NCBI GenBank assembly: GCA_035651575.1
Contig: DASRFM010000069.1
Location: forward strand, 12,725-76,724
From: Burkholderiales bacterium
GTDB taxonomy: Bacteria > Pseudomonadota > Gammaproteobacteria > Burkholderiales > SG8-39
Direction of reading: 5' to 3'
DNA: 64,000 nucleotides
The position numbers and the translations under genes are program-made. Position 1 is the first letter of the stretch, and each line of letters starts with the position of its first letter. The notes below the pieces were generated by a model, which saw nothing but the letters and a program-made list of their open reading frames with translations, ran no database searches and was not told the DNA's origin. Below are positions 1-18,684 of the stretch, piece after piece.

Positions 1-112
1 CGGGCAGCACCCCGATCAGCGTGCCGAGGATCACGCCGATGAAGCAGTAGAGGACGTTGATCGGGTTGACCGCGACCTCGAAACCGATAATCAGGTTGTG
101 AAAGATCTCCAT
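1..112 (-). CDS. tctA: TctA-family tripartite tricarboxylate transporter permease, N-terminal fragment (continues beyond window start)
   Basis: Reverse-strand ATG at 112..110 followed by MEIFHNLIIGFEVAVNPINVLYCFIGVILGTLIGVLP, which matches the conserved TctA N-terminus. Lies 12 nt downstream of the tctB stop. Confidence 0.8.
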   Translation of the reverse strand, partial: MEIFHNLIIGFEVAVNPINVLYCFIGVILGTLIGVLP

Positions 113-124
113 TGCGGTTCCGCC

Positions 125-580
125 TTATTCGAACGGGGCCGGCCAGATCGGGAAGGGCAGCGTGAGCCCCTTCACGAAAACAAGCCATGAGAAGACGAAC
201 AGGATCACGTAAAGGATCGTGACTTCCTTCCACTTGAACTCATGGCCGCCGTAGGCGCTCACATAGACGAGGGCGGCGGTCGCGCCGACGAGGCCGAGCG
301 GCTTCATGAGATAGCCGTAGAGCACGACGCCGACGGAGATGAACAGCAGCGGACGGAAATGAAATTGCGGAACTGCAGGCCCCTGCACCGCGAGCCCGCC
401 GGCGAGCACGATGAGGCCGAGCACCGTGAGGAGGCCGCCGAGAACCGCGGGAAAGTAGCCCGGCCCCATCCGCACCGCCGTGCCCATCTGGTAGTGCTCG
501 AGCGACCAGAGCATGAAGAACAAGCCGAATCCGGCGAACATGATCCCGGACCAGAAGTCCTTGGGACTCTTGATTTTCAT
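125..580 (-). CDS. tctB: TctB-family small membrane subunit of tripartite tricarboxylate transporter
   Basis: 3' part of track ORF 125..1357. Internal ATG at 580 (MKIKSPKDFWSGIMFAGFGLFF...) is preceded by GGAGGAGG. 151 aa and hydrophobic. The upstream part of the track ORF is an Arg/Ala-rich GC artefact. Confidence 0.8.
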   Translation of the reverse strand: MKIKSPKDFWSGIMFAGFGLFFMLWSLEHYQMGTAVRMGPGYFPAVLGGLLTVLGLIVLAGGLAVQGPAVPQFHFRPLLFISVGVVLYGYLMKPLGLVGATAALVYVSAYGGHEFKWKEVTILYVILFVFSWLVFVKGLTLPFPIWPAPFE

Positions 581-687
581 TGCCTCCTCCAGAGATGGCT
601 CGGGCCCGGTACCGCGCAAGGGCCGCGGGTCTTTTGCCCGGCAAAGTCTAGCATGCTGTTTTCGCGTCTCCTTTCGACCAACGTAAG

Positions 688-1308
688 CTATCGCCGCAGG
701 CGCACCGCCGGCAGACGGTCCAGATCCTCCGGGCGGTCCACGTCCCAGACCGTGCGCAACGTGCGCCAGCGCAGGCCGAGCGCGCGCGCATTCGCCGCCG
801 TATCGCGGCAAACGCTGTCCCCGCCCCAGGTTATTCCGCGGAACAGCGGCGCGCGCATGCGGCGCGCACCGATCAGCGCGTAACCGCCGTCCTGCGCCGG
901 AGCGACCACAACGTCGCACGCCGCGGCGAGCAGGCGCGCGGCGCGGCGCAGGTCGGCGGGCACAAGGACGGGACAGTCGCTGCCGATCAGCACCGCGGTG
1001 CGGGAGGTGCGCAAAGCGCCCGCCAGCGCGCGCTGCATCCGCTCGCCGAGATCGCCGCCCCGCTGCGTCCGCAGGCGCACGCGGTAGCGCGCCGCCCAGC
1101 CGCGAAAAAGCGCGTGGCGCCCGCCCGGCGTACCGTGCAGCTCCACCGCGCCGCGCGCCGCCCGCCTTGCCGTGACGAGGGCGTGCCGCGCGAGCCGCGC
1201 CTGCAGCCGGGCGGCCGCGTCCGCGCCGATGCGCGCCGCGAGGCGCGTCTTCGCGCGGCCGGCGAGCGGCGCGCGCGCGAACACGATGATCGTGCAACCC
1301 GCCTTCAA
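688..1308 (-). CDS. DUF2064-type protein (as I recall, TIGR04282 'transferase 1, rSAM/selenodomain-associated')
   Basis: 3' part of track ORF 688..2166: (L)KAGCTIIVFARAPLAGRAKTRL...GSDCPVL...VVAPAQDGGYALIG. TTG start at 1308..1306 overlaps the upstream stop as TTGA. Confidence 0.7.
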   Translation of the reverse strand: MKAGCTIIVFARAPLAGRAKTRLAARIGADAAARLQARLARHALVTARRAARGAVELHGTPGGRHALFRGWAARYRVRLRTQRGGDLGERMQRALAGALRTSRTAVLIGSDCPVLVPADLRRAARLLAAACDVVVAPAQDGGYALIGARRMRAPLFRGITWGGDSVCRDTAANARALGLRWRTLRTVWDVDRPEDLDRLPAVRLRR

Positions 1309-1964
1309 CGATAGCGCTCGGCGAGCCGCGCCGGGTCGGCGCCGAGCGCATAGGCAAGGCGGATGCGCCACATGAGCACGATCGTGGCGAGCACGCCGCG
1401 GCTCTCCCAGCGGCGGGCGGAGGTCACCACCCGCTCGCGCAGGCAGGCCGGAGGCCCCTTGCGCCTCATCGCGGCGCTGAACGCGACGTCCTCCATGAGC
1501 GGGATTTCCGGGAAGCCGTCGAACGCCTCGCGCCGCACGAAGATCGCCTGGTCGCCGGTCGCGATGCCGGTGAGCCGGGAGCGCAGGTTCATCGCCGCCG
1601 CGACCAGACGCAGCAGCGGATGCGTGCTTTCGATCGCGACGTCGAAGCGCCCCCACGCCCGCGCCTCGAGCGCGCGGGCGACGAGGGCGGCCGCTCCCGC
1701 GGGAAGCTGCGTATCGGCGTGCAGAAAAAGCAGGTGGCCGCCGTTCGCGGCGCGCGCGCCCGCGTTCATCTGCCGTGCTCGCCCGCGAGGCGCGCTCAAG
1801 ACGCGGTCGCAGAGCCCCCCTGCGAGCTCCGCCGTGCCGTCGCCACTGCCGCCGTCGACCACCACGACCTCGACGCCCTGCCCGCGGAGCGGCGCGAGCG
1901 CGGCGAGATGCGTGCGAATCCGGGGTGCCTCGTTCAGCACCGGCACGACGATGGAAAGGCTCAC
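1305..1964 (-). CDS. Family-2 glycosyltransferase (as I recall, TIGR04283 'transferase 2, rSAM/selenodomain-associated')
   Basis: VSLSIVVPVLNEAPRI...VVVDGGSGDGT...LFLHADTQLP motifs. GTG start at 1964..1962 overlaps the upstream stop as GTGA. The track ORF start at 2033 would overlap the upstream gene by 73 nt. Confidence 0.75.
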   Translation of the reverse strand: MSLSIVVPVLNEAPRIRTHLAALAPLRGQGVEVVVVDGGSGDGTAELAGGLCDRVLSAPRGRARQMNAGARAANGGHLLFLHADTQLPAGAAALVARALEARAWGRFDVAIESTHPLLRLVAAAMNLRSRLTGIATGDQAIFVRREAFDGFPEIPLMEDVAFSAAMRRKGPPACLRERVVTSARRWESRGVLATIVLMWRIRLAYALGADPARLAERYR

Positions 1965-4111
1965 GCGCGCATCCAGGCGTGGAACCGCTCGGCATGGCGC
2001 AGCAACCCTTGTGGCGCATGCGCCCGCTGCCACACCCCCGCGGCATGCTTGTTCGCCTCGGCGAGCGTGGGATAGACGTGGATGGTGGCGAGGAGCTTGC
2101 GCAGCCCGATGCCGTGGCGCATCGCCAGCACGAACTCGGCGATGAGCTCGCCTGCCTGCTCGCCAACGATCGTCGCTCCGAGCACGCGGTCGCTGCGCGG
2201 GGCAGTGAGCACTTTCACCATGCCATGCGCCTCGCCTTCGGTCATCGCGCGATCGAGCTCGTCCATGCCGTACACGGTCGCCTCATAGGGGACATTGCGC
2301 TCGTTCGCCTCGCGCTCATTCAAGCCGACGCGCGCCACTTCCGGCTCGGTGAAGGTGGTCCACGGAATGACGGAATAGTCGGCGCGGAAGGTCCGGAACG
2401 CGCCGAAAAGCGCGTTCACCGTGGCATACCACGCCTGGTGGGACGCGGTGTGGGTGAACTGGTAGGGCCCGGCGACATCGCCGCAGGCGTAGATGTTTGG
2501 ATAGCGCGTGCGCAGGAACTCGTCGGTTGCGATCGTCCCGGCCGGCGTCAGCGGGATGCCGAGCGCCTCCAGGCCGTAACCGGCGGTGTTCGCGATCCGA
2601 CCGGTCGCGCACAGCAGGGCATCGAGCTCAAGCGCGATTTCTCCCGCAGCATTCCGGGCGACAAGCCGCTTGCCGCCCGCCCCGACCTCGACGCGGACGG
2701 CCTGGTATCCGGTCAGGACGCGCACGCCTTCGCTCTCCAGCCGCGCCTGCAGCGCCGCGGACACCTCGTCGTCCTCGCGCGCCAGGATGCGCGGCAGCAT
2801 CTCGAGTTGCGTCACCTGCGCGCCCAGGCGCGCGAACGCCTGCGCGAGCTCGCAGCCCACGGGCCCGCCGCCGAGGACGAGCAGGCGGCGCGGCAGCTCG
2901 CGCAGCGCCCACACGTTGTCCGAGGTAAGCACCTCGAGCGCTTCGATGCCCGGAATCGGCGGCACGAAGGGACGCGCGCCTGCCGCGATGACGATGGATC
3001 GCGTCGTCAGCAGGCGGCGGCCTTCGGACGCGGCCACCTCCACCGACCAGGGCGAGGCGATGCGCGCCTCGCCCTGCAGGCACTCGACCCCGAGCGCCCG
3101 GTAGCGCTCCACCGAATCGTGCGGCGCGACGCGCTCCACCACGCCGCGCACGCGCTCCATGACGGCGGCGAAATCGGCCTCCGGCCGCGGCGCCTTCAGG
3201 CCAAACTCCGGGGCGCGCCGCAGGAGCGCGAGCACGCGCGCCGACTTGAGCAGTGCCTTCGAGGGCACGCATCCCGTGTTCAGGCAATCGCCGCCCATGC
3301 GATGCTTCTCGACCAGCGTGACCTTCGCCCGCACCGCCGCTGCGATGTACGCGCACACCAGCCCGGCGGAGCCGGCGCCGATGACCACGAGATTGCGCTC
3401 GAAGCGCCGCGGCCGCGGCCAGCGCGCATAGACGCGGCGCGCCCTCGCCGCGTCCACGATGCGTTTCGCGATGAGCGGGAAAAAGGCGAGCAGCAGGAAG
3501 GCAGCGACAAGCCGCGCGGAAAGGATTTCCCCGGCGGAGTGCACGGTGGCGAGCTGCGTTCCGGCATTCACGTACACCATCGTGCCCGCGAGCATGCCGA
3601 GCTGGCCCACCCAATAGAAGGTCCACGCCCGCATCGAGGTGAGGCCCATCACGAGGTTGATGGCGAAATACGGGATATAGGGAATCAGGCGCAACGTGAA
3701 GAGGTAGAACCCGCCCTCGCGCTCGATGCCCTCGTTGACCGCCCGCAGATGGCTGCCGAAGCGTTCCTGCACCCAGTCGCGCAGGATGAACCTCGACAGC
3801 AGGAACGCGAGCGTCGCGCCCAGGCTGGCGGCGAACGAGACGAGCACCGTGGCGAGGACAAAGCCGAACACCGCGCCGCCGACCAGCGTGAGCACGGTCG
3901 CGCTGCCCGGAAGCGACAGGCCGGTGCACGCGACGTAGAGCACAAAGTAGGCGACGAGGGTCTGCAGCCTGTGCGCGGCGTAGTAGCGCTCGAGCGCGGC
4001 GCGCAGTTCCTGCAGATTGGCGAAGCTGAGGTACTGGGGCCCGCCGGAGATCAGGAAGGCGGCAATGGCGAGCAGGACGATCGCGGCGAGCGCGATGCGC
4101 GCGCGAGTCAC
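1961..4111 (-). CDS. Fusion protein: TVP38/TMEM64 (DedA-like) membrane domain plus FAD-dependent pyridine nucleotide-disulfide oxidoreductase
   Basis: The N-terminal half is polytopic membrane (...LVAYFVLYVACTGLSLPGSATVLTLVGGAVFG...). The C-terminal half has VVIGAGSAGLVCAY (FAD) and the redox-active GGDCLNTGCVPSK motif. GTG start at 4111..4109 overlaps the arsS stop as GTGA. Confidence 0.8.
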   Translation of the reverse strand: MTRARIALAAIVLLAIAAFLISGGPQYLSFANLQELRAALERYYAAHRLQTLVAYFVLYVACTGLSLPGSATVLTLVGGAVFGFVLATVLVSFAASLGATLAFLLSRFILRDWVQERFGSHLRAVNEGIEREGGFYLFTLRLIPYIPYFAINLVMGLTSMRAWTFYWVGQLGMLAGTMVYVNAGTQLATVHSAGEILSARLVAAFLLLAFFPLIAKRIVDAARARRVYARWPRPRRFERNLVVIGAGSAGLVCAYIAAAVRAKVTLVEKHRMGGDCLNTGCVPSKALLKSARVLALLRRAPEFGLKAPRPEADFAAVMERVRGVVERVAPHDSVERYRALGVECLQGEARIASPWSVEVAASEGRRLLTTRSIVIAAGARPFVPPIPGIEALEVLTSDNVWALRELPRRLLVLGGGPVGCELAQAFARLGAQVTQLEMLPRILAREDDEVSAALQARLESEGVRVLTGYQAVRVEVGAGGKRLVARNAAGEIALELDALLCATGRIANTAGYGLEALGIPLTPAGTIATDEFLRTRYPNIYACGDVAGPYQFTHTASHQAWYATVNALFGAFRTFRADYSVIPWTTFTEPEVARVGLNEREANERNVPYEATVYGMDELDRAMTEGEAHGMVKVLTAPRSDRVLGATIVGEQAGELIAEFVLAMRHGIGLRKLLATIHVYPTLAEANKHAAGVWQRAHAPQGLLRHAERFHAWMRA

Positions 4112-5073
4112 GGCGCGAGCGCGCCGCCGCAGGAAGAGCCCTGTCCGGCAGTGCAGCCGAAGCAGTGATCGCGCACGGCGATCGGGTTGTCCAGGAGATC
4201 GCGCCCGGCAAGCTCGCGCAGGTGCACGCGGCGGCGGCCTTCCACGACGAGCGGCAGGCCGAGCATCTGGTTGAAGTCGCAGTCGTACACGAAGCCCTGC
4301 CAGTCCACCGACACCAGGCTGCGGCACATGACGGACCCGAGATTCTCGTCCCGGTGCGAGCCGCGCAGGAGCGCCATGTAGTCGCGGAACGTGCCCTTCG
4401 ACACGAGGGTGGAGCCAAAGCGCTGGATCGGCATGTTGGCGAGCGTGTAGAGCCGGTTGAAGACGATGCCGTGCCGCGCTGCGAGCTCGCGCCGGTAGTC
4501 GGCCTCGAGCGGCTCCTGCGGCGGCGGCAGCACCGGCCCCTGCGGGTTGTAGACCAGGTTCAGCGCGAGGCCGCTCTCGGGCGCGCCGTAGCCGAGCGCG
4601 TTCAGCGCCTTGAGCGCCGCGATGCTGCGCGCGTAGACGCCCTGGCCGCGCTGCCGGTCGACGAGCTCCTCGCCGTAGCAGGGCAGCGAGGCGATGATTT
4701 CGACGCGCTGCGCAGCGAGGAAGCCGGCGAGGCCCTCCTGTCCCGGCTCGAGCAGGATGGTGAGATTGCAGCGATCAATGACGTGGACGCCGAGCCCGCG
4801 CGCGCCCTCGACCAGCGCCCGGAAGTGGGGATTCAGCTCGGGCGCCCCTCCGGTGATGTCGAGATTCCCGAGCTTTCGCTGTTCGAGAAACGCGACGATC
4901 TCGAGCACCGTCTCGCGCGACATCATCTCGGTGCGCGTCGGGCCGGCGTTGACGTGGCAGTGCAGGCAGCTCTGGTTGCACCTGTAGCCCAGGTTCACCT
5001 GCAGCGTCTCGAGGCGGCCGCGGCGCAGCGCCGGAAAGCCGTGCTCGCGCATCAAAGGAAGCGTCGCGTGCAT
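4108..5073 (-). CDS. arsS: ArsS-family radical SAM / Cys-rich domain protein (arsenosugar-biosynthesis-type radical SAM)
   Basis: Track ORF of 321 aa. Radical-SAM CX3CX2C motif is GYRCNQSCLHCHV. C-terminal Cys-rich tail is DHCFGCTAGQGSSCGG. There is no in-frame TGA, so this is the Cys form, not the Sec form. Confidence 0.8.
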   Translation of the reverse strand: MHATLPLMREHGFPALRRGRLETLQVNLGYRCNQSCLHCHVNAGPTRTEMMSRETVLEIVAFLEQRKLGNLDITGGAPELNPHFRALVEGARGLGVHVIDRCNLTILLEPGQEGLAGFLAAQRVEIIASLPCYGEELVDRQRGQGVYARSIAALKALNALGYGAPESGLALNLVYNPQGPVLPPPQEPLEADYRRELAARHGIVFNRLYTLANMPIQRFGSTLVSKGTFRDYMALLRGSHRDENLGSVMCRSLVSVDWQGFVYDCDFNQMLGLPLVVEGRRRVHLRELAGRDLLDNPIAVRDHCFGCTAGQGSSCGGALAP

Positions 5074-5104
5074 GAACGCTCGGTCGCGCGGGGTCCGGTG
5101 CGCC

Positions 5105-5650
5105 TTACGGCAGGATGTTCGCGGCGCCCTGCGACTGCTCGTCGAGCAGCTCGAGCACGCGCTGGCTCGTGGCGCGCAGCCGCTGCGACAGCATGAGGAC
5201 CAGCTCCATCAGCACCTTGGCGCCGAGCATGGGCTGCTCGACGATGATGCGGGCGAGGCTTTCCCGGTCGAGCATCGCGACCAGCACCGGCTCCGAGCAG
5301 ACGCAGGTGGCGAAGCGCGCCTCGCCGTCGATCATGGACATCTCGCCCAGGACCTTGCCGGCGTCCACGACCGCGATCAGCTGGGGCGTGTTCCAGCGGT
5401 CGCGCTTGCGCACTTCCACCTTGCCCTCGACGATCATCAGCATGAAGTCGCCGCCGTCGCCTTCCCGGATCAGCTCGATGCCGGCCTCCGCCCGGTAGAC
5501 GTCCATGAAGTGCGCGAGCAGGCGCACCTCGGCCGGCGAGAAGTTCTCCAGCAGCGCGCACTTCGGGATGAGCGCATGCAGCTGGCCGGCGAACTGCGTC
5601 GCATCGCCGAGATGCTCGAGGTGGGCGAGCTGCTGCGGCCGGTCGGGCAT
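5105..5650 (-). CDS. Stand-alone cyclic-nucleotide-binding (CAP effector-type) domain protein
   Basis: Internal ATG at 5650 of track ORF 5105..6904, giving 181 aa. Sequence ...FSPAEVRLLAHFMDVYRAEAGIELIREGDGGDFMLMIVEGKVEV...GEMSMIDGEARFATC is typical of a cNMP-binding beta-barrel. No HTH follows. Confidence 0.75.
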   Translation of the reverse strand: MPDRPQQLAHLEHLGDATQFAGQLHALIPKCALLENFSPAEVRLLAHFMDVYRAEAGIELIREGDGGDFMLMIVEGKVEVRKRDRWNTPQLIAVVDAGKVLGEMSMIDGEARFATCVCSEPVLVAMLDRESLARIIVEQPMLGAKVLMELVLMLSQRLRATSQRVLELLDEQSQGAANILP

Positions 5651-5685
5651 ACCCTGCGCATTATGCCCAATCGGGCGGGCCGGGG

Positions 5686-6795
5686 TTAGCCGCGCCGCTG
5701 CTTGCGGCGGCGGCGCACCGCCTCGGCGAGGTCCTCCAGCAGCCGGGCGGAGTCCTCCCATCCGAGGCAGGGGTCGGTCACGCTCTGGCCGAACACCAGG
5801 CGCCCGCCGCCCAGGTCCTGCCGGCCCTCCACCAGGTTCGATTCCACCATGAGCCCGACGATGCGCCGCTCGCCCTGCGCGAGGCGCTCGCCGATGTCGC
5901 GCGCCACCTCCAGCTGCTTCCTGTATTGCTTGGACGAGTTGGCATGCGAGCAGTCGATCATCAGGCGCTCGGCAAGCTTCGCCTTCTTCAGCTCCTCGCA
6001 GGCCGCCTGCACCGAGGCGTCGTCGTAGTTCGGCTGCTTGCCGCCGCGCAGGATGACGTGGCAATCCTCGTTGCCGCGCGTCTCGACGATCGCCACCTGG
6101 CCGCTCTTGTGCACCGAGAGGAAATGGTGCTTCTGCCTCGCCGCGAGGAGCGCGTCCACCGCGATCTTCACGTTGCCGTCGGTGCCGTTCTTGAAGCCTA
6201 CCGCCGCCGAGAGGCCCGAGGCGAGCTCGCGGTGCACCTGGCTTTCCGTGGTGCGCGCGCCGATCGCGCCCCACGAGACGAGGTCGCCGATGTACTGCGG
6301 CGAGATCACGTCGAGGAACTCGCAGCCGGCCGGTACGCCTGCCTGGTTGATGCGCACCAGCAGGTCGCGCGCGATTCGCAGGCCCTCGTTGATGCGGAAG
6401 CTGCCGTCGAGATGGGGATCGTTGATGAGGCCCTTCCAGCCCACCGTCGTGCGCGGCTTCTCGAAATACACCCGCATCAGGATCTCGAGCTCGCCCTCGT
6501 GCCTTTTCCTCTCCCCGGCGAGCTTCTCCGCGTACGCGACCGCGGCCTGGGGGTCGTGGATCGAGCAGGGGCCGATGACGACGAGCAGCCGGTCGGACTT
6601 GGCGTGCAGGATGTCGCGCACCTTGCGGCGCGTTTCCGCGATCCTCTTCTCCACCGGCGTGCCGCTGATGGGAAAGAACCGGATCAGGTGCTCCGGCGGC
6701 GGCAGCGGCACGATGTTGGCGATGCGCTCGTCGTCGGTGAGCGAGGTCTTGTCCGCCGGGACGGTGCTCAGGTAGCTCTCGGTTGGCGCGGTCAT
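5686..6795 (-). CDS. aroG: Class I 3-deoxy-7-phosphoheptulonate (DAHP) synthase
   Basis: 369 aa. Contains LLVVIGPCSIHDP, MRVYFEKPRTTVGWKGLINDP, WGAIGARTTESQVHRELASGLS and IDCSHANS. SD GAGGTG lies 7 nt upstream of the ATG. The isoenzyme type (Phe/Tyr/Trp-sensitive) cannot be read from the sequence. Confidence 0.95.
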   Translation of the reverse strand: MTAPTESYLSTVPADKTSLTDDERIANIVPLPPPEHLIRFFPISGTPVEKRIAETRRKVRDILHAKSDRLLVVIGPCSIHDPQAAVAYAEKLAGERKRHEGELEILMRVYFEKPRTTVGWKGLINDPHLDGSFRINEGLRIARDLLVRINQAGVPAGCEFLDVISPQYIGDLVSWGAIGARTTESQVHRELASGLSAAVGFKNGTDGNVKIAVDALLAARQKHHFLSVHKSGQVAIVETRGNEDCHVILRGGKQPNYDDASVQAACEELKKAKLAERLMIDCSHANSSKQYRKQLEVARDIGERLAQGERRIVGLMVESNLVEGRQDLGGGRLVFGQSVTDPCLGWEDSARLLEDLAEAVRRRRKQRRG

Positions 6796-6812
6796 AGGTT
6801 TTCACCTCGGGC

Positions 6813-6849
6813 AAAAAAAAAACCGCCAGGCTTTCGGCTGGCGGTTTTT
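6813..6849 (-). terminator. Intrinsic terminator acting as attenuator in the aroG leader
   Basis: Minus-strand RNA reads AAAAA-CCGCCAG-CCGAAAGC-CUGGCGG-UUUUUUUUUU. The stem is 6844..6838 paired with 6829..6823, followed by a 10-U tract at 6822..6813. It ends 17 nt before the aroG ATG. Confidence 0.8.
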
Positions 6850-6869
6850 CGGGATTCGCGGTGATGCGT

Positions 6870-6935
6870 CTAGCCGTTCCCCTCCGCCAGCAGGCGCGGG
6901 ACATGGAAGAAGAACCCGAAGAAGAACCGGCTCAT
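6870..6935 (-). CDS. Phe-rich leader peptide MSRFFFGFFFHVPRLLAEGNG (21 aa)
   Basis: ATG AGC CGG TTC TTC TTC GGG TTC TTC TTC CAT ... TAG. Six TTC codons fall within residues 4-10. The ORF lies immediately upstream of the terminator/antiterminator pair and of aroG. Confidence 0.7.
   Translation of the reverse strand: MSRFFFGFFFHVPRLLAEGNG
6884..6891 (-). promoter_or_regulatory. Antiterminator segment (GCUGGCGG) complementary to the terminator 5' arm
   Basis: Minus-strand GCTGGCGG inside the leader ORF is a perfect 8-nt complement of CCGCCAGC at 6844..6837. This pairing excludes the terminator stem. Confidence 0.6.
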
Positions 6936-6979
6936 CACGCCCTATTGAAGCACGAACCGCCCGGCCCCGGCAAATGGCC

Positions 6980-7423
6980 TCATTTCCTCGGCCACAGGAT
7001 CATCTGCGTGCAGCGAAACAGCGCGATGCGGGCCGCGCTCGCCTCGACGCTGACCTCCGCGTCCCAGACCTGGGTGGTGCGGCCCAGGTGGACCGGCGTG
7101 GCGCGGCAGGCGAGCGCGCCCTCGAGCGCGGTGCCGAGGAAGTTGGCCTTGAGCTCGAGGGTGGTGAAGCCGCTTGCGCCGGCCGGCAGGTGGGAGACGC
7201 AGGCGTAGCCGCAGCTCGTGTCGGCGAGCGCGATCACGCTCGCGGCGTGCAGGAAGCCGTTCGGCGCCAGCAGCTCGCGCCGGATCTCGAGGCGGCTCTC
7301 GAGCACCTCGGGGCGCACGGAGACGATCGATAGTCCGACCAGACCAGGCAGGTGGCCCGCGCTCTTCGCGTTGAACGCCGCCGGGGTCAACTCCGGGCGG
7401 AAGCTATCCGTCAGGGATTTCAT
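6980..7423 (-). CDS. PaaI-family (hotdog fold) thioesterase
   Basis: Track ORF of 147 aa. Sequence ...LESRLEIRRELLAPNGFLHAASVIALADTSCGYA...TLELKANFLG...GRTTQVWDAEV is typical of PaaI/4HBT-type thioesterases. Confidence 0.8.
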   Translation of the reverse strand: MKSLTDSFRPELTPAAFNAKSAGHLPGLVGLSIVSVRPEVLESRLEIRRELLAPNGFLHAASVIALADTSCGYACVSHLPAGASGFTTLELKANFLGTALEGALACRATPVHLGRTTQVWDAEVSVEASAARIALFRCTQMILWPRK

Positions 7424-7557
7424 GGTCCGACTGTACCGGGATTGGCACTCGCGCGCGCGGATTGCCAGGCGCAGGGTTTGCTAGGCAGGAAGCATCATGC
7501 TAATTTTTTCATGCGGGGTGGAGTCAGCAGTCAAAAAAAGAGGAAGGTGGGTGACCG

Positions 7558-8541
7558 ATGCCTGAGACCGTCGCCAAACCACAGCCTGTGATTCCGATTG
7601 CCGGGTTCAAGGACGTCTACGACGTCCCGAGCGTGGAGAAGGCTCTGCACGAGCTGCCGCCCGGCGCGAACGAGGCGCTGCGCGCGGTGTACGAGAAGAT
7701 GCTGCGCCTCGGCGGCCAGCGCTTCACCGTCAAGCCCTCGGCGCTGCCCGAGATGGACGCCCTCTTCGAGGAGCTGCCCAATTTCACCGCGGCGCTCGAG
7801 GACATCCGCAAGCACCTCGCGCTGTGCATCGACTCGAACGACTCGGTCGAGTTACCGCCGATGCTGCTCCTCGGCGAGCCGGGAATCGGCAAGACGCACT
7901 TCGCGCGCAAGGTCGCGCAGCTGCTCGGCACCGGCTTCGGCTTCGTGCCGATGAGCTCGCTCACCGCCGGCTGGGTGCTCTCCGGCGCCTCGTCGCAATG
8001 GAAGAACGCGAAGCCGGGCAAGGTGTTCGACACCTTCCTCAACGGCGACTACGCGAACCCCGTCATCGTCGTCGATGAGATCGACAAGGCGAGCGGCGAG
8101 GGGCAGTACGACCCGCTCGGCGCACTCTACGAGCTCCTCGAGAGCCAGACCGCGACGCGCTTCGTGGACGAGTTCGTCGAGCTGCCGATCGACGCCTCGG
8201 GCGCGGTATGGCTCGCCACCGCGAACGACCCGGCACGCATCCCCGAGCCGCTCCTGAACCGGCTGTGCGTGTACGAGATCGACGCCCCGGACGCGGCGGG
8301 CGCCGCGCGCATCGCGCAGAACATTTATGGCGAGATCCGCGGCGCGCACGACTGGGGACGCGCGTTCCCCGAGCGCCTCGGCGGCTCGGCGCTCGCCAAG
8401 CTCGCCACGATGCCGCCGCGCGAGATGCGCCGCGCGATCCACGCCGCCTTCGGCAACGCGAAGATCGCGGGACGCGGCGAAGTCACGCCCGAGGACATCA
8501 GCGACGGCCGCGCCGGCCGGAAAGCGCGGATCGGCTTCTAA
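7558..8541 (+). CDS. AAA+ ATPase resembling the Lon ATPase module, without a protease domain
   Basis: 327 aa. Walker A is LLLGEPGIGKTHFARKVA and Walker B is VIVVDEIDKAS. GDPLGALYELLESQTATRFVDEFVELPIDASGAVWLATAN and IPEPLLNRLCV parallel Lon AAA+ motifs. SD GGAAGGTGG lies upstream. Confidence 0.7.
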   Translation: MPETVAKPQPVIPIAGFKDVYDVPSVEKALHELPPGANEALRAVYEKMLRLGGQRFTVKPSALPEMDALFEELPNFTAALEDIRKHLALCIDSNDSVELPPMLLLGEPGIGKTHFARKVAQLLGTGFGFVPMSSLTAGWVLSGASSQWKNAKPGKVFDTFLNGDYANPVIVVDEIDKASGEGQYDPLGALYELLESQTATRFVDEFVELPIDASGAVWLATANDPARIPEPLLNRLCVYEIDAPDAAGAARIAQNIYGEIRGAHDWGRAFPERLGGSALAKLATMPPREMRRAIHAAFGNAKIAGRGEVTPEDISDGRAGRKARIGF

Positions 8542-8819
8542 TGCTTGGCCGGGTTTAGCGTGCCCCGGTTGTAGTCCCGGTCGCCCTCGTAGACCTTGCG
8601 GCCGAGGCCGAACAGCCCGCCCTGCGCCGAGCGCTCGCGCGCATCCTCTTTTTCGGCGGCGGCGCGCTGCACCTCGGCTTTCTGGCGGTCCGCGTATTCC
8701 CAGCGCCCGTTGGGCAGGAGCCTGACCCTCTCGCCGGTCGCGGTCGTTGCCTCGATCGGGCTCTCCTGCGAAAAGACATGCGGAGAAAAGAGCAGCAGAA
8801 AAACCAGCGCGGCCCTCAA
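8538..8819 (-). CDS. Small secreted hypothetical protein (93 aa)
   Basis: TTG at 8819..8817 overlaps the alaS stop as TTGA. The N-terminus (M)[20 protein letters not shown] looks like a signal peptide. GC3-rich codons. The 3' end overlaps the convergent AAA+ gene by 4 nt. Confidence 0.5.
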
Positions 8820-11764
8820 AGGCGCTGCTCGACCCAGGGCTGGACCGAGCGCAGCGCGCCCGGAAGCTTGGCGGCGTCGGTGCCGCCCGCCTGCGCCATG
8901 TCGGGGCGGCCACCGCCCTTGCCGCCGACCTGCTGCGCCACGTAGTTCACGAGCTCGCCCGCCTTCACCTTCGCCGTGAGGTCCGGCGTGACGCCGGCGA
9001 TCAGCGAGACCTTGCCCTCGTTCACCGCGCCCAGAACGATCGCCGCGGACTTGAGCTTGCCCTTCAGCTGGTCCAGCGTCTCGCGCAGGATCTTCGGGTC
9101 GGCGCCCTCGACGGTCACGGCGAGCACCTTGGCACCCTTTACGTCCACCGCCTGCGCGCTCAGGTCGGAGCCCTGGCTCGAGACGAGCTTCAGCTTGAGG
9201 CGCGCAAGCTCCTTCTCCAGCGCGCGCTTCTCCTCGAGCATCCCGCTCAGCGCCTTCTCGACCATGCCGGGACCCGGCTGCGCGCGCAGCTGGCGCGCCA
9301 CCTCGCCGAACTCCTTCAGCTGCTCGTTGACCAGGCCGAGCGCGCGCTCGCCGGTCGTGGCCTCGACGCGGCGGATGCCGGCCGCGACGCCGCCCTCGGA
9401 ATAGATCTTGAAGAGTCCGATGTCGCCGGTGCGCGCGACGTGCGTGCCGCCGCAGAATTCGCGCGAGGTGCCGATGTCGAGCACGCGCACCTCGTCGCCG
9501 TACTTCTCGCCGAAGAGCATCATGGCGCCGGAGCTCTTCGCCTGCTCGATCGGCATGACCTGCGCGCGCGTCGGCGTGTTCTGCAGGATCTCGGCGTTGA
9601 CGCGCGCCTCGACCTCGCGGATCTCCTCCTCGCTCACCGGCTTGCCATGCGAGAAGTCGAAGCGCGTCTTGTCGGCGTCGACGAGCGAGCCGCGCTGCTG
9701 GACGTGGCCGCCGAGCACGTCGCGCAGCGCCTTGTGCATGAGGTGCGTGACCGAGTGGTTGCGCATCGTGCGCCGGCGAAGCGCGCTGTCGACGCGAGCC
9801 TCGACGCGGTCGCCGACCTTCAGGCGACCGACCTTGAGCGTGCCGTGGTGGCCGAAGACCTCCGCCTGGATCTTCTGGGTGTCGTCCACCGAGAACGTGC
9901 CGCCCGGGGCGACGAGCTCGCCGCGGTCGCCCACCTGGCCGCCCGATTCCGCGTAGAACGGGGTCTCGTCGAGCACCACGGTGCCCGTGTCGCCGCTCTT
10001 CAGCTCCTCGACGCGCGTGCCCTCCCGGTAGAGCGCGACGACCTTCGCCGGATGGTCCATCTTCTCGTAGCCGCGGAATTCCGTCCTGGCGCCGCTGTAC
10101 TCCAGTCCCGCCGCCATCGCGAACTTCGATGCGGCGCGCGCCTTGGCGCGCTGCTCCTGCATGGCCGTGTCGTACGCCGAGACGTCGACCGGGATGCCTT
10201 TCTCGCGGCACAGATCCTGCGTCAGGTCGAACGGAAAGCCGTACGTGTCGTAGAGCGTGAAGGCGGTGCGGCCGTCGAACGGGATCGCCGCTTCCCTCAG
10301 GTAGATCACGCGCACCTTGTCGTAGTCGCGCCCGCGGCCCACCTTGTCGAGCAGCTCCTCGGGCGTCTTGTCGGACGGGCCGTGGAACACGAGGTACATG
10401 CGCGCGGGCTTGCCCGACTTGGCCGCGTACTCGTCTACCGCCGCGACGCAGGCGCGCACCAGCTCGTCGACGTTCGCCACCGCGCCCGCGCGCTTCACCT
10501 GCACGAGGATGTCCTCGTTGTCCTTGTGGAACGCGCCGTCGGAAATGCGGCCCCTCGTTTCCTCGAAAAACCTGAAGTCGTGCACAAAGTGGTCGCGGAT
10601 ATAGCCGATCGCCCGCGCCTCGGTCTTCGCGCCCTGCTCGAAGAGCCGCATGCCGTTCTCGAGCGTCTCGGCGAACTTCTCCTCTTCGGCCTTGAGCGTC
10701 TCGGCGACGCGCGCCTTCGAAGCGCGCAGCTCGGGGTAGGCATCGCCCATCGCCTGGTCGAGGTCCCCGACCAGGCGGTAGAAGAACGGCTCCTTGCGGC
10801 CGAGCTGGTAGCCGTGGCGGATCGCCCGGCGGATGATCCGCCTCAGCACGTAGCCGCGCCCCTCGTTGCCGGGAATGACGCCGTCGACCACGAGGAAGGC
10901 ACAGGCGCGGATGTGGTCCGCGATCACGTTGAGCGAAGGCTGCCTGAAATTCCTCTGGCCGGTCTCGCGCGCCGCCGCCTTGATGAGATCCTGGAACAGG
11001 TCGATCTCGTAGTTGGAATGCTTGCCCTGCAGCACTGCCGCGATGCGCTCGAGCCCCATCCCCGTATCGACGCAGGGCTTGGGCAGGGGGGTGAGCACGC
11101 CCTTCTCGTCCCGGCTGTACTGCATGAAGACGAGGTTCCAGATCTCGATGTAGCGGTCGCCCTCCGCGTCGGGCGAGCCCGGGGGGCCGCCCGCGATGCC
11201 CGGGCCGTGGTCGTAGAAGATCTCGCTGCACGGCCCGCAGGGACCGGTGTCGGCCATCTGCCAGAAATTGTCGGACTGGTATTTGGGCGCGCCGGGCTTG
11301 TCGCCGATGCGCACGACCCGCTCCTTCGGCAGTCCGATCATCTTCGTCCAGAGCTCGTAGGCCTCGTCGTCGGTCTCGTAGACCGTCGCCCAGAGCTTGT
11401 CGACCGGCAGCTTGTAGACCTTCGTCAGGAGCTCCCAGGCGAAGGCGATCGCATCCTTCTTGAAGTAGTCGCCGAAAGAGAAATTGCCGAGCATCTCGAA
11501 GAAGGTGTGGTGCCGGGCGGTGTATCCCACGTTCTCGAGATCGTTGTGCTTGCCCCCGGCGCGCAGCGAGCGCTGCGAGCTCGTGGCGCGCGAATAGGGC
11601 CTCTTGTCCTTGCCGAGGAACACGTCCTTGAACTGCACCATCCCCGAGTTCGTGAAGAGCAGCGTCGGGTCGTTCGCCGGAACGAGCGGACTCGAGGGCA
11701 CCACGCTGTGGCCCTTCGAGCGGAAGTACTCGAGGAAGCTCGAGCGGATTTCTGCGCTTTTCAT
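8816..11764 (-). CDS. alaS: Alanine--tRNA ligase carrying an insertion of about 109 aa
   Basis: 982 aa. Contains [55 protein letters not shown], the editing-domain motifs HSVTHLMH and CGGTHV, and the C-terminal [15 protein letters not shown]. See the finding on the insertion at about 10286..10624. Confidence 0.95.
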
Positions 11765-14789: not shown

Positions 14790-17006
14790 TCAGGAAGCCT
14801 GCAGCATGCGCACTTCGGCGTTGGTGTAGCGCAGCCGAACGGCGAGCGTCCGGGCGAGGCCCTCGAGCAGGTTGAGCGCGAGCACCCGGTGCTCCTGCGC
14901 GAGGCCGTCGAAGCGCGCGCGCGGCAGCACGAAGAGCTCGGTCTGCGTCGCCGCCAAGGCGTCGGCCGAGCGCGTTTCGCGGTCGAGAAAGGCCATCTCG
15001 CCGAAGAAGTCGCCGCGGCTGAAGGTCGCGAGGTGGTGGCTCTGGCCCTCGGCGATCGGCAGCAGCGCGCGCACCCTGCCCTTGCGGATGAGGTAGAGCT
15101 CGTCGCCCCGCTCGCCGCGGCGAAAGATGACGTCGTTCTCGGCATAGCTGCGCGTCTCCATGCACGCGCGCAGCGCCGCCAGCGTCTCCGCCTTGCGCCC
15201 GCGGAAGAGCTCGATCTCCTCGAGCTCGAGCGGCCGCTCCTCGGCGCGCTCGACGCCCGAGCCCTGGAGCAGCCGGTTCTCGACCCACTCGAGCGCCTCG
15301 TCCAGATGATTGAAGATCTGCGCGTGCCGCTCCGGCCTCACCAGGCCCACCTGGTCGAAGTAGCGGCCGAGGTCCTGCCCGCTCGGCAGGTGCAGCGGCA
15401 GGTGGCTGAAGAGGAGATAGGCCTTGCGCTCCTGCAGCGCGTCCTCGATGCGCTCGAGCACATGGGCGGCGGTCACATCCACGGACTGCACGCGGCGCAT
15501 GTCGAGGATCACGTAGCTTCGCGTGTCGAGATGCGGCTCGAGCTGCATGTAGAGCTGGTCGGTGGTGCCGAAGAAAAGGCTGCCCTGCAGCTCGAACACG
15601 ATCGCCTCCTCGCCGCGCCGGGCGAGGATCTCCATCTCGCTCGGCAGGCGGACCTGCCTCGAGCGCATGTGCGTCAGGAAGGACTTGCGGTGCACCACGC
15701 TGGCACGCGTCTGCTCGCGGATGAAGAGCATCCCCGCCAAGCCGGTGCCGACGATCGATGCGGCGATCAGGCCGACCGTTTCCGCGACCAGCACCACGGC
15801 GAGGATGACGAGGAAGTCGAGCAGCGTCTGCCGCGAGCGCGCAAGGTGCAGGCTCTCCCAATCGATCATGCGCACGCCGATCACGATCAGGATGCCCGCG
15901 AGGGCGGCGATCGGAATCCACGCCACGAGCGGCGCGAGCGCGAGGAGCGCGGCGAGCGAGAGCGCGCCTTCCGTCATGCCGGAGCGGCGCGTCCAGCCGC
16001 CGCCGGCGATGTTCACCATGGTCGGCCCCATGGCGCCTGCGCCGGGCGCGCCGCCGAGAAGCGCGGCTGCGACGTTGCCGCTGCCCTGCCCGAGCAGCAC
16101 GCGGTTCGAGTCGTGCCGGCTTCGCGTCACGGCGTCGGTCACCACGCAGGTCTTGAGCGTATCGATCGACAGCAGCACCGCGAGCGTCAGTCCGGGAATG
16201 AATGCCGCGGCGAGCGACGCCAGGTCGATATGCAGGACCGAGCTCCAGCGGGCCATGGAAAGCCGCGCGAGCGCCTCGAGCGAGACCGGGACGTTGCCGA
16301 TCACGAGGGGATTGCGCTCCAGGCGCAGGAGCGCGCGATCGGCGAGGCCCAAGGCAAGGAAAGCGATCATGCCGCCGGCCAGGCCGAGGACCGGGGCGGG
16401 CACCGCTTTGGTCAGCCTCGGGCCGAGCGTCATGGCGGCGACCGTGGCAGCGCCGATGGCGATCGCCTGGGCGCTCCACCCCGAGGGCGAAGTGATCACC
16501 TGCTCGAGCGAGCCCGCAGCGCCGAGAAGCTTCGGAACCTGGCTGAGCACGATGATGAGCCCGACCCCGGTCATGTAGCCGCTCACCACCGGGTAGGGCA
16601 TGTACTTGATGAGGCGGCCGAGGCCCACGGCCCCGAAGGCACCCTGGAAAAGCCCGCAGATGAGCGTGATGAGAACGAGCGAGAGCAGCACCGATTCTGG
16701 CGGCGCCCCGGCGCCCGTTGCATGGATGGCGAAGGCCGAGAGCAGCGCCGCAGCGGGCGCGCAAGGCGTGCTGATCAATCGCGGCGCGCCGCCGAGCGCC
16801 GCGGTAACGAGGCCGAGCGCCGCGGCGCCCAGCAGCCCGGCGAGCGCGCCCTCGGCGGAGAAGCCCGCCCCGAGCGGCGAGAGGATGGTCACCCCGAAGG
16901 CGATCGCCGAGGGCACCGCGACCAGCATCGCGGCGGTTCCTCCCCACAGGTCGCCCGCGAGGCTGCCGCGCGCCTTGGTGTCCATCGCGTGAACGTAGCC
17001 CGCCAT
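14790..17006 (-). CDS. SulP-family anion transporter with C-terminal STAS and cyclic-nucleotide-binding domains
   Basis: Internal ATG at 17006 of track ORF 14790..17594 (MAGYVHAMDTKARGSLAGDLWGG...), giving 738 aa. Polytopic SulP core. The C-terminus ...FRRGERGDELYLIRKGRV...RGDFFGEMAFLDRETRSADA is a cNMP-binding fold. Confidence 0.85.
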   Translation of the reverse strand: MAGYVHAMDTKARGSLAGDLWGGTAAMLVAVPSAIAFGVTILSPLGAGFSAEGALAGLLGAAALGLVTAALGGAPRLISTPCAPAAALLSAFAIHATGAGAPPESVLLSLVLITLICGLFQGAFGAVGLGRLIKYMPYPVVSGYMTGVGLIIVLSQVPKLLGAAGSLEQVITSPSGWSAQAIAIGAATVAAMTLGPRLTKAVPAPVLGLAGGMIAFLALGLADRALLRLERNPLVIGNVPVSLEALARLSMARWSSVLHIDLASLAAAFIPGLTLAVLLSIDTLKTCVVTDAVTRSRHDSNRVLLGQGSGNVAAALLGGAPGAGAMGPTMVNIAGGGWTRRSGMTEGALSLAALLALAPLVAWIPIAALAGILIVIGVRMIDWESLHLARSRQTLLDFLVILAVVLVAETVGLIAASIVGTGLAGMLFIREQTRASVVHRKSFLTHMRSRQVRLPSEMEILARRGEEAIVFELQGSLFFGTTDQLYMQLEPHLDTRSYVILDMRRVQSVDVTAAHVLERIEDALQERKAYLLFSHLPLHLPSGQDLGRYFDQVGLVRPERHAQIFNHLDEALEWVENRLLQGSGVERAEERPLELEEIELFRGRKAETLAALRACMETRSYAENDVIFRRGERGDELYLIRKGRVRALLPIAEGQSHHLATFSRGDFFGEMAFLDRETRSADALAATQTELFVLPRARFDGLAQEHRVLALNLLEGLARTLAVRLRYTNAEVRMLQAS

Positions 17007-17023: not shown

Positions 17024-17610
17024 CTAGGTTAACCGATGGAAGACGAGCAGCCGGTTGTTCGCGGGCATTGGATGATCCGCGGCCAGCGCCATGCCGTTCT
17101 CCTTTCCCAAGGCAGCTACGGCAGCGCAGTCGCGCAGCCCGCTCGCAGGGTCGCGGGCGCGCAGCATCGCGTCGAAACGCAGGTTGCTCTCGACGGTCGG
17201 CCGGTCCGCATACAAGAACGGGCCGTAGAGCACGAAGACGCCGTCGGGCGGCAGCAGCCGCGCTACGCCGGCGAAAAGCTTCCTCACCTGCGCCCAGGAC
17301 ATGATGTGGCAGGTATTCGCCGAGAACACCGCGTCCGCTTCGATGTCCGGCCAGGCGTGGTCCACGTCGAGCTCTATGGGAGCCAGGAGGTTGCCCGCGC
17401 GCGCGTCCTCGACCCAGGCGAGGATGCCGGGCAGATTCTCGGCGCGGTCGCTCGGCTGCCAAACGAGGTGCGGCAAACGCGGCGCCAGGAACGCCGCGTG
17501 CTGGCCGGTGCCCGAGCCGATCTCGAGCACGCGCGAGCGTCCGGCAAAAACGCCCTCGAGCACCGCGAGGATCGGAGCGCGGTTGCGCTCGCAAGCCTCG
17601 GAGAAAGGTT

Positions 17611-17614
<4 letters not shown>
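17024..17614 (-). CDS. DUF938-family class I SAM-dependent methyltransferase (start codon non-canonical or uncertain)
   Basis: (L)KPFSEACERNRAPILAVLEGVFAGRSRVLEIGSGTGQHAAF... There is no ATG/GTG/TTG upstream of the conserved N-terminus. The only candidate is CTG at 17614..17612, inside a CTGA overlap with the upstream stop. Confidence 0.7.

Positions 17615-18680
<1,066 letters not shown>

Positions 18681-18684
<4 letters not shown>

Follow-up and report, generated by a model that had tools for sequence, protein, structure and literature searches.

A compact ArsS-type radical SAM cassette with a DedA-flavoprotein fusion in an uncultured Burkholderiales bacterium and its probable role in organoarsenical synthesis

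Organization of the ArsS cassette

The window analyzed here, a stretch of 64,000 nucleotides from contig DASRFM010000069.1 of an uncultured Burkholderiales bacterium, encodes on its minus strand a cassette of four genes headed by arsS, the gene for an ArsS-type radical S-adenosylmethionine (SAM) enzyme. The arsS gene (4108..5073) specifies a protein of 321 aa with a C-terminal Cys-rich DUF3641 domain. The next gene (4111-1961) encodes a 716 aa fusion protein, in which a VTT/DedA membrane domain of the TVP38/TMEM64 type (residues 1-232, encoded by 3416..4111) is combined with a class-I pyridine-nucleotide-disulfide-oxidoreductase domain (residues 233-716, encoded by 1961..3415). The last two genes respectively code for a glycosyltransferase of family 2 (GT2; 219 aa, 1305..1964) and a DUF2064 nucleotidyltransferase-like protein (206 aa, 688..1308), with a TTG codon as the start of the latter. 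The genes are chained by overlaps of 4 nucleotides, which can be read directly from the sequence as a GTGA joining the stop of arsS to the start of the fusion gene (4108..4111), a second GTGA joining the fusion gene to the GT2 gene (1961..1964) and a TTGA joining the GT2 gene to the DUF2064 gene (1305..1308). These overlaps had been noted in a first-pass annotation of this DNA and were recovered at the same positions, as were, in the translations, the motifs that it had quoted, namely CNQSCLHC, CFGCTAGQGSSCGG and GGDCLNTGCVPSK. An independent gene caller applied to a near-identical metagenome contig from ENA (L001, with 99-100% protein identity) produced the same four genes with products of 321, 716, 219 and 206 aa and the same 4-nucleotide overlaps.

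About 16 of the 64 same-strand junctions in the gene map of the window, i.e. about a quarter, are also 4-nucleotide overlaps; given that such overlaps are common in this genome, those of the cassette represent ordinary tight operon packing and are unremarkable on their own. The conservation of this order between genomes speaks more strongly for the predicted operon. Taken together, the location of the genes on one strand, the three stop/start overlaps and the retention of gene order at many loci bear out the operon structure that had been claimed, and the four genes would be translated as one coupled unit. The operon is real and belongs to an already annotated kind, being ordinary for its family. 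A promoter scan of positions 1-7600 yielded no promoter-like sites, while terminator-like sites occurred at chance level; no minus-strand terminator was detected 3' of the operon in the same region. A G+C-rich hairpin followed by TTTTG (612-628) resembles a terminator for the plus strand, and lies in the 107-nucleotide gap between the DUF2064 gene and tctB, both of which are on the minus strand.

The ArsS protein and its glycosyltransferase and DUF2064 partners

The window ArsS matches the TIGR04167 equivalog model across positions 2-303 of 303 with a score of 450.3 bits (cut-off 300), and PF12345 (DUF3641) with 180 bits. Its CxxxCxxC motif is formed by C32, C36 and C39, and an alignment of 44 sequences revealed that it retains every invariant residue of the family, including C250, C265, C304, C307 and the terminal SSC. 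The NCBIfam description of the family reads '(seleno)protein'. A search of PDB recovered no solved ArsS structure; the nearest match, YydG, is related through the radical SAM motif only. The family is large, with more than 8000 close homologues, a figure that holds for each of three cassette proteins; 725 clusters at 50% identity match ArsS at E <= 1e-30, and in a scan of genomes at least 598 of at least 600 stretches encode an ArsS relative.

The GT2 protein scores 261 bits against TIGR04283 (cut-off 182). Its AlphaFold2 model (pLDDT 94.4) displays a GT-A fold, with invariant DGGSxD (D37, G38, G39, S40 and D42) and HAD (H82, A83 and D84) motifs. Its structural neighbors in a Foldseek search include the fucosyltransferase WrtF, AvpGT with bound nucleoside Ara-A, the mannosyltransferase PcManGT, TarP with ribitol phosphate and the glucosyl-3-phosphoglycerate synthase GpgS. 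The DUF2064 protein scores 195.1 bits against TIGR04282 (cut-off 134) and 101 bits against PF09837; it additionally shows a weak match to CofC (TIGR03552, E = 7e-11) and matches the structural-genomics entry 3CGX in PDB, a 'putative nucleotide-diphospho-sugar transferase' (E = 9e-18). Thus, the family assignments of the first-pass annotation hold, with ArsS, GT2 and DUF2064 above curated hidden Markov model (HMM) cut-offs and the fusion protein containing VTT and disulfide-reductase-like domains.

The names given in that annotation for the two partners, i.e. rSAM/selenodomain-associated transferases 1 and 2, are still in use at JGI (e.g. 'rSAM/selenodomain-associated transferase 2'), while the current NCBIfam name for both TIGR04282 and TIGR04283 is 'arsenosugar biosynthesis glycosyltransferase'. 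Given these names and the scores above cut-off, an ordinary annotation pipeline would already assign three of the four genes to arsenosugar synthesis. A search of the literature on TIGR04282, TIGR04283, DUF2064, DUF3641 and ArsS beyond cyanobacteria recovered no functional study of the partner genes, and the earlier statement that the chemistry is unsolved is still fair for the downstream steps.

Contextual links between ArsS and arsenic methylation

To place the cassette in context, about 85 related loci were compared, of which the main set comprised the best 80 genome loci among the at least 598 stretches, from beta-, gamma-, zeta- and alphaproteobacteria, in which ArsS is 60-77% identical to the window protein. 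Neighboring genes were mapped by tblastn with the window proteins and with proteins from the relatives; 48 loci, hereinafter full-flank loci, offered at least 5 kb of upstream and at least 8 kb of downstream sequence. The gene order recurs across these loci, in agreement with the earlier claim of a conserved neighborhood, with GT2 present in 41, DUF2064 in 39 and the VTT-FAD fusion in 28 of the 48.

Several lines of contextual information connect this family with the arsenite methyltransferase ArsM. First, six of ten long ArsS-family proteins are fusions of ArsS to ArsM, recognized via a Methyltransf_31 domain; these domains carry the motifs GACC, YGCGSP, VLDLGCGxGRD, SNCVINL and GECLxGA, which we take to be ArsM signatures. 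Second, 15 of 81 related loci, and 7 of the 48 with full flanks, encode ArsM no more than 10 kb from ArsS. Two of these loci (L010 and L084) show the order ArsS, ArsM, VTT/FAD, GT2, DUF2064, which is the window cassette with ArsM added after ArsS, while in five others (L023 from Caldimonas manganoxidans, L036, L054, L072 and L082) the cassette is followed by ArsM downstream. Against NF038099, 'arsenosugar biosynthesis arsenite methyltransferase ArsM', which has a cut-off of 400, the ArsM proteins adjacent to ArsS reach 549 bits in L010 and 546 bits in L069, and that of L084 is 77% identical to the ArsM of L010; other ArsS-adjacent methyltransferases have ArsM models as their best match, with scores under the cut-offs. 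ArsM directly adjoins arsS in loci with an ArsS that shares 62-73% identity with the window protein. Third, in a neighbor-joining tree of ArsS proteins the ArsM-linked loci are interspersed with those without ArsM, and L010 branches just outside the clade of the window. A separate arsM-free subfamily of ArsS was considered and rejected, as the tree shows both kinds of loci intermixed. In the ArsM gene of L082 (14601-15641) an in-frame stop occurs at about 14780, in the region of the SAM-binding motif (PALL*GCRVLDLGCG), which could reflect either a pseudogene or a sequencing error.

The first-pass annotation had suggested a membrane-associated product unrelated to arsenic. Under such a reading the ArsS of this arsM-less lineage would adenosylate another nucleophile, e.g. 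one based on selenium or sulfur, and the cassette would build a non-arsenic 5'-deoxyribosyl molecule associated with the membrane. Consistent with this, 41 of the 48 full-flank loci, the majority state, have no ArsM within 10 kb, and the cassette in the window clade lies in a stable housekeeping context (alaS, aroG ... tctBA) rather than in an ars island. The '(seleno)protein' of the NCBIfam text points the same way, as does a DedA protein linked to selenite resistance, to the extent conveyed by a citation in a survey of that superfamily (reference 18 in PMC10127716), and the TauE, PMT_2 and UbiA genes found beside the cluster in some relatives suggest polyprenyl-linked sugar chemistry. However, dimethylarsenite, DMAs(III), is the only substrate with demonstrated activity in the ArsS family (PMC13598754). 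The ArsS-ArsM fusions, the direct adjacency of ArsM in loci with ArsS proteins related to that of the window, the lack of a distinct arsM-free clade in the tree and the retention of all family-invariant residues in the window protein likewise argue against a different substrate, and a missing arsM within 10 or 64 kb is silent on the rest of the genome. Moreover, as its local absence is the common state, it is no sign of new chemistry. We therefore regard a non-arsenic substrate as rather unlikely, and the earlier notion of a molecule unrelated to arsenic finds no support here. The view that confined the link between ArsS and arsenosugars to cyanobacteria with an adjacent arsM is outdated, given that NCBIfam and RefSeq use arsenosugar-biosynthesis names for TIGR04282, TIGR04283 and a dedicated ArsM subfamily in proteobacteria. 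Thus, the fusions, synteny, phylogeny, retained residues and published chemistry together argue that the window ArsS is an orthologue that handles arsenic.

The DedA-flavoprotein fusion

The N-terminal part of the fusion protein matches PF09335 (VTT_dom) at residues 71-185 with 77.2 bits (gathering threshold 33.9), and matches to Pyr_redox_2, Pyr_redox and Pyr_redox_dim span residues 240-690, in line with the TVP38/DedA-disulfide reductase fusion proposed earlier. Four hydrophobic segments (residues 6-24, 49-67, 73-91 and 196-214) are located within residues 1-232. Beyond the last of these comes an Arg-rich linker (8 K/R within residues 222-245), which places the reductase domain in the cytoplasm. 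The best NCBIfam match of the fusion is NF004991, 'FAD-containing oxidoreductase', at 491 bits, under its cut-off of 620. In an alignment of 36 ArsS-linked fusions the C276/C281 redox pair provides the only invariant cysteines, and an H-x-Y-P-T-x-x-E motif is conserved. A residue-level alignment places the Tyr of this motif (VYPTLAE in the window protein; at least 95% conserved) at the position where lipoamide dehydrogenases carry the catalytic His (HPTLSE), with the Glu retained. This Tyr-for-His replacement may be a new point. The protein appears to be neither a MerA nor a lipoamide dehydrogenase: it scores 372 bits against the MerA model TIGR02053 (cut-off 454), its C-terminus (...ERFHAWMRA) has no Cys and its N-terminus is VTT and not NmerA; against the lipoamide dehydrogenase model TIGR01350 it scores 384.6 bits (cut-off 408.8), and the His of the His-Glu dyad is replaced by Tyr, which is inconsistent with a dihydrolipoyl dehydrogenase.

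Close homologues of the fusion are very abundant and the best 120 all share the VTT + Pyr_redox architecture, although their source names are only 'FAD-dependent oxidoreductase' or 'dihydrolipoamide dehydrogenase'. A homologue from Burkholderia glumae, 61.7% identical in the reductase domain and 46% in the VTT domain, is named 'bifunctional TVP38/TMEM64 family protein/FAD-dependent oxidoreductase' in RefSeq. The COG0398 subfamily of DedA proteins has been proposed to comprise phospholipid flippases, and the commonest fusion partner of this branch is PF07992/PF02852; the survey reporting this ties the DedA-reductase fusion to aerobic metabolism in general and makes no connection with ArsS (PMC10127716). 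The fusion could conceivably act in general membrane or redox housekeeping and often be carried along, with ArsS, GT2 and DUF2064 alone as the functional unit. Such a passenger status is compatible with its being the most frequent type of COG0398 fusion, with the retention of both GT2 and DUF2064 in 16 of the 20 full-flank loci that lack it, and with its displacement in certain loci, where it is divergent or several kb away (L019, L026 and L065) or about 10 kb away (B. glumae). On the other hand, the window gene sits between arsS and GT2 with 4-nucleotide overlaps on both sides, the fusion recurs in 28 of the 48 full-flank loci, and it is placed between ArsM and GT2 in L010 and L084. Furthermore, when fusion homologues were picked solely for their long contigs, all three of three were found inside ArsS clusters. 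In light of these observations we consider a mere passenger quite improbable; the fusion is a frequent member of ArsS clusters, an association that current annotation does not make and that may be new.

Accessory genes and the neighborhood of the cassette

Clustering of unexplained open reading frames brought out recurrent additional neighbors of the cassette. A methylthioadenosine (MTA) phosphorylase gene (MTAP; TIGR01694, 320 bits with a cut-off of 275) is found in 10 loci and in the B. glumae plasmids, a 321-aa phosphoesterase-like protein in 19, DUF547 in 13, DUF3047 in 15, a 373-aa FAD oxidoreductase in 17-18, an extracytoplasmic function (ECF) sigma factor in 12 and an SSF transporter in 7. 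The phosphoesterase-like protein is conserved, has a length of about 320 aa and is encoded between arsS and the fusion gene (L002, 10959-11924, and 18 other loci). It contains GDFNWFD, HGD and SSHTC motifs, which by eye resemble those of phosphoesterases; it yielded no NCBIfam match at E <= 1e-5 and none in precomputed Pfam. Presumably, it may be the 'phosphoesterase' of the old TIGRFAM description of this neighborhood.

The clade closest to the window (L002-L006, L083 and L085) displays the conserved order alaS - AAA - aroG - (TauE - PMT_2 - UbiA) - cNMP - arsS - (phosphoesterase-like) - VTT/FAD - (DUF547) - GT2 - DUF2064 - (DUF3047) - tctBA, in which the window represents the minimal form devoid of all the genes in brackets. 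A search of the window for these genes and for MTAP, the 373-aa FAD oxidoreductase and SSF recovered none of them. The gene labeled cNMP encodes a stand-alone cyclic nucleotide monophosphate (cNMP)-binding protein, which in the window has 181 aa and lies on the minus strand (5105..5650; PF00027, 56 bits). The coordinates confirm the gaps described earlier, with 31 nucleotides from this gene to arsS and 35 nucleotides from aroG to this gene. It is directly 5' of arsS in all members of the closest clade and was not found beside arsS elsewhere in the compared loci; it may be co-transcribed with the cassette, and its product may regulate it. A TauE-family permease gene occurs between aroG and the cNMP-arsS pair in close relatives (insert at 6232-9352 in L002; L003-L005; 6775-7458 in L083), and L002-L005 have further inserted genes for a PMT_2 (ArnT-like GT-C) protein and a UbiA prenyltransferase. 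This insert could be a polyprenyl-phosphate-sugar module partnering the ArsS cluster or an unrelated insertion.

The reduced gene content of the window, as the shortest form in a clade whose other members add the phosphoesterase-like protein, DUF547, TauE and DUF3047, might alternatively point to decay or silencing, with arsM, the phosphoesterase-like gene and DUF547 lost from the cassette and no product made any longer. Yet its four reading frames are intact, their products score above the family cut-offs with the invariant catalytic residues kept, and the same four-gene form is shared by L007, L042, L048 and L052. The G+C content at third codon positions of the cassette (0.89-0.93) also resembles that of the adjacent housekeeping genes, in a window with 69.7% G+C overall. 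Decay of the cassette is thus very improbable.

A Pfam scan of 40 further genes predicted at 11.8-50.7 kb recovered housekeeping genes only, including recA, recX, rib genes, trmD, rimM, ffh, secA, argJ, lpxC and ftsZ; those at 50.7-64 kb, after ftsZ and beyond the range of the HMM scan, look like a dcw cluster in their sizes and order. A second cNMP-binding protein of the window combines a SulP permease and STAS domain with a C-terminal cNMP-binding domain (14790-17006, minus strand). Beside it is an AmmeMemoRadiSam set, comprising a DUF938 methyltransferase (17024-17530), a radical SAM protein (17611-18684) and a Memo+AMMECR1 fusion (18681-19991, minus strand). The DUF938 protein was considered as a hidden ArsM and rejected in view of its Pfam assignment, the lack of similarity to ArsM and its AmmeMemoRadiSam/SulP context.

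Related clusters also occur on plasmids. A search of Burkholderia plasmids recovered at least 49 records and, among the matches listed, all were plasmids of B. glumae. In these the cluster is dispersed and includes the fusion, a FAD oxidoreductase, TIGR04282, TIGR04283, MTAP, an MFS transporter, ECF sigma and anti-sigma factors, CcdA, thioredoxin and arsS. Plasmid NC_012718.1 of B. glumae BGR1, for instance, has arsS, TIGR04282, TIGR04283, MTAP and the fusion. The examples L086 and L087 are from plasmid NZ_CP045091.1 (75.8-89.1 kb) of this cultured rice pathogen, and their anti-sigma factor is of the zf-HC2 type. The CcdA, thioredoxin and ECF sigma/zf-HC2 neighbors provide hints of envelope thiol-redox control. 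The Thiodictyon plasmid NZ_CP020371.1 (L088) encodes GT2, a sterol-desaturase-family protein, ArsS and TIGR04282. Its sterol-desaturase-family (fatty-acid-hydroxylase-type) gene is directly 5' of arsS (8054-8959), and a nucleoside-recognition-family membrane protein is encoded nearby; such lipid- and nucleoside-related neighbors were not seen in the betaproteobacterial loci.

A proposed pathway for the cassette

The above observations suggest that the locus is a compact, chromosomally fixed ArsS cassette for organoarsenicals ('arsenosugars'), a reading to which we assign a probability of roughly 0.62; the attribution to arsenic as such is held with much the same confidence. In this family the [4Fe-4S] cluster of ArsS cleaves SAM, and the resulting 5'-deoxyadenosyl radical is added to DMAs(III) to give 5'-deoxy-5'-dimethylarsinoyl-adenosine (DDMAA). 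The adenosylation of DMAs(III) to DDMAA is redox-neutral (PMC13598754). In Synechocystis arsS is co-transcribed with arsM, the products of which are the substrates of ArsS (bioRxiv 10.1101/2022.09.23.509062). By analogy, the ArsS of the window would adenosylate DMAs(III) as the first step, with the methylated arsenic supplied either through an arsM at another site in the genome or as dimethylated arsenic from the environment. The adenine would then be removed by an enzyme of the MTA-phosphorylase type encoded elsewhere than in the window cluster. The presence of MTAP in related clusters fits this step, though it fits adenine removal from any adenosine with a 5'-heteroatom substituent and not arsenic alone. 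Subsequently, activation of the 5-arsinoyl-ribose and its transfer to an acceptor, either of the glycerol type or a lipid, might be the task of the TIGR04282 protein and the GT-A glycosyltransferase of the TIGR04283 family. The NAD(P)H/FAD domain of the fusion, at the cytoplasmic face of the membrane, could hold either the arsenical or the Cys-rich ArsS tail in a reduced, thiol-bound and trivalent form, one possibility being the reduction of DMAs(V) to DMAs(III). The TVP38-type DedA domain may carry the substrate, or else the arsenosugar lipid that is formed, through the inner membrane. A membrane-associated product, as suggested in the first-pass annotation, is plausible.

Certain observations weigh against this proposal. 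The window contains no arsC, arsB/acr3, arsR or arsH in the 0-50.7 kb scanned with HMMs, and tblastn searches of the whole 64 kb with the ArsM domains of ArsS-ArsM fusions and three ArsM subtypes from related loci recovered nothing better than E = 0.05; the earlier statement that arsM and ars genes are missing therefore stands for arsM throughout the window and for the resistance genes within the scanned part. The closest clade (L002-L006, L083 and L085) is also entirely without ArsM within 10 kb. The presence of the fusion is uncorrelated with that of ArsM (Fisher p = 0.43), and the lack of an anticorrelation led us to reject a version in which the fusion replaces ArsM by salvage, i.e. 'salvage instead of methylation'. 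A literature search recovered no report of arsenosugars from heterotrophic proteobacteria. The fold neighbors of GT2 have TM-scores of 0.6-0.68 and diverse specificities; hence, the acceptor is not inferable from the fold. The 'arsenosugar biosynthesis glycosyltransferase' names rest on gene neighborhood, ArsS alone having demonstrated activity, and the roles given here to the reductase and DedA domains are ones that we infer.

A wider and more speculative extension of the organoarsenical proposal is that heterotrophic soil and freshwater bacteria of the Burkholderiales, and of other beta- and gammaproteobacterial groups, are unrecognized makers of arsenosugars or arsenosugar lipids, and that the fusion is a missing enzyme which takes up or holds dimethylarsenate and reduces it to DMAs(III) for ArsS, or else recycles the Cys-rich tail of ArsS. 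Under this scheme lineages without a local arsM could make organoarsenic lipids out of methylated arsenic taken from the environment. We regard this extension as rather unlikely.

Significance

Among the arsenic species of food webs, arsenosugars and arsenolipids are major ones. To our knowledge, the ArsS step is the only one in their synthesis that has been shown biochemically, and reports of production that we know of concern cyanobacteria and algae rather than heterotrophic proteobacteria. ArsS cassettes abound in the genomes and metagenomes of proteobacteria; if active in these bacteria, they would imply that organisms making complex organoarsenicals are far more widespread than assumed, and GT2, DUF2064, the fusion, MTAP, the phosphoesterase-like protein and DUF547 would become obvious candidates for the missing steps. 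The B. glumae and Thiodictyon plasmid clusters are tractable systems for tests of these predictions. For the window itself the result is mostly a correction, in that the operon is typical of its family and comparative evidence links it to arsenic. What seems underdescribed is the consistent recruitment of the DedA-flavoprotein fusion and of several other unnamed partners into the ArsS clusters of heterotrophic proteobacteria.

Comparison with known systems

The nearest functional precedent is the arsM-arsS arsenosugar pathway of Synechocystis sp. PCC 6803, reportedly established by Xue et al. in 2019 and Cheng et al. in 2021. Its ArsS shares with that of the window the TIGR04167 family membership, the CxxxCxxC motif and the Cys-rich DUF3641 domain, and the first committed step, DMAs(III) adenosylation, is expected from these shared features to be identical. 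In contrast, the window has no arsM beside arsS or anywhere in its 64 kb, its host is a heterotrophic betaproteobacterium and its arsS is coupled to three more genes. At the level of gene content, the cassette corresponds to the 'rSAM/selenodomain-associated' set of NCBIfam/TIGRFAM (TIGR04167, TIGR04282 and TIGR04283), all three members of which are above cut-off in the window, with their usual order ArsS ... GT2-DUF2064 kept; RefSeq annotates the same set in the B. glumae plasmids and Thiodictyon. It differs in that the window ArsS has Cys and not Sec, in the absence of the phosphoesterase-like gene of 19 related loci and in the presence of the DedA-reductase fusion between arsS and GT2.

The reductase domain of this fusion resembles the group that includes MerA, lipoamide dehydrogenase and RclA/hypothiocyanite reductase, with the same two-dinucleotide-binding fold, dimerization domain and CxxxxC pair. 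MerA too has a Tyr at the acid-base position, which would be a further likeness to the fusion. Unlike the MerA-like reductases, the window protein is under all equivalog cut-offs, possesses neither the C-terminal Cys pair nor NmerA, and is joined to a membrane DedA domain. That domain is in turn comparable to the COG0398, or TVP38-TMEM64, branch of the DedA superfamily, to which it can be putatively assigned by its VTT domain and by its occurrence in the commonest type of fusion of this branch. It is distinguished from the described members of the branch by being embedded in an ArsS cluster, an association that we did not find described for them.

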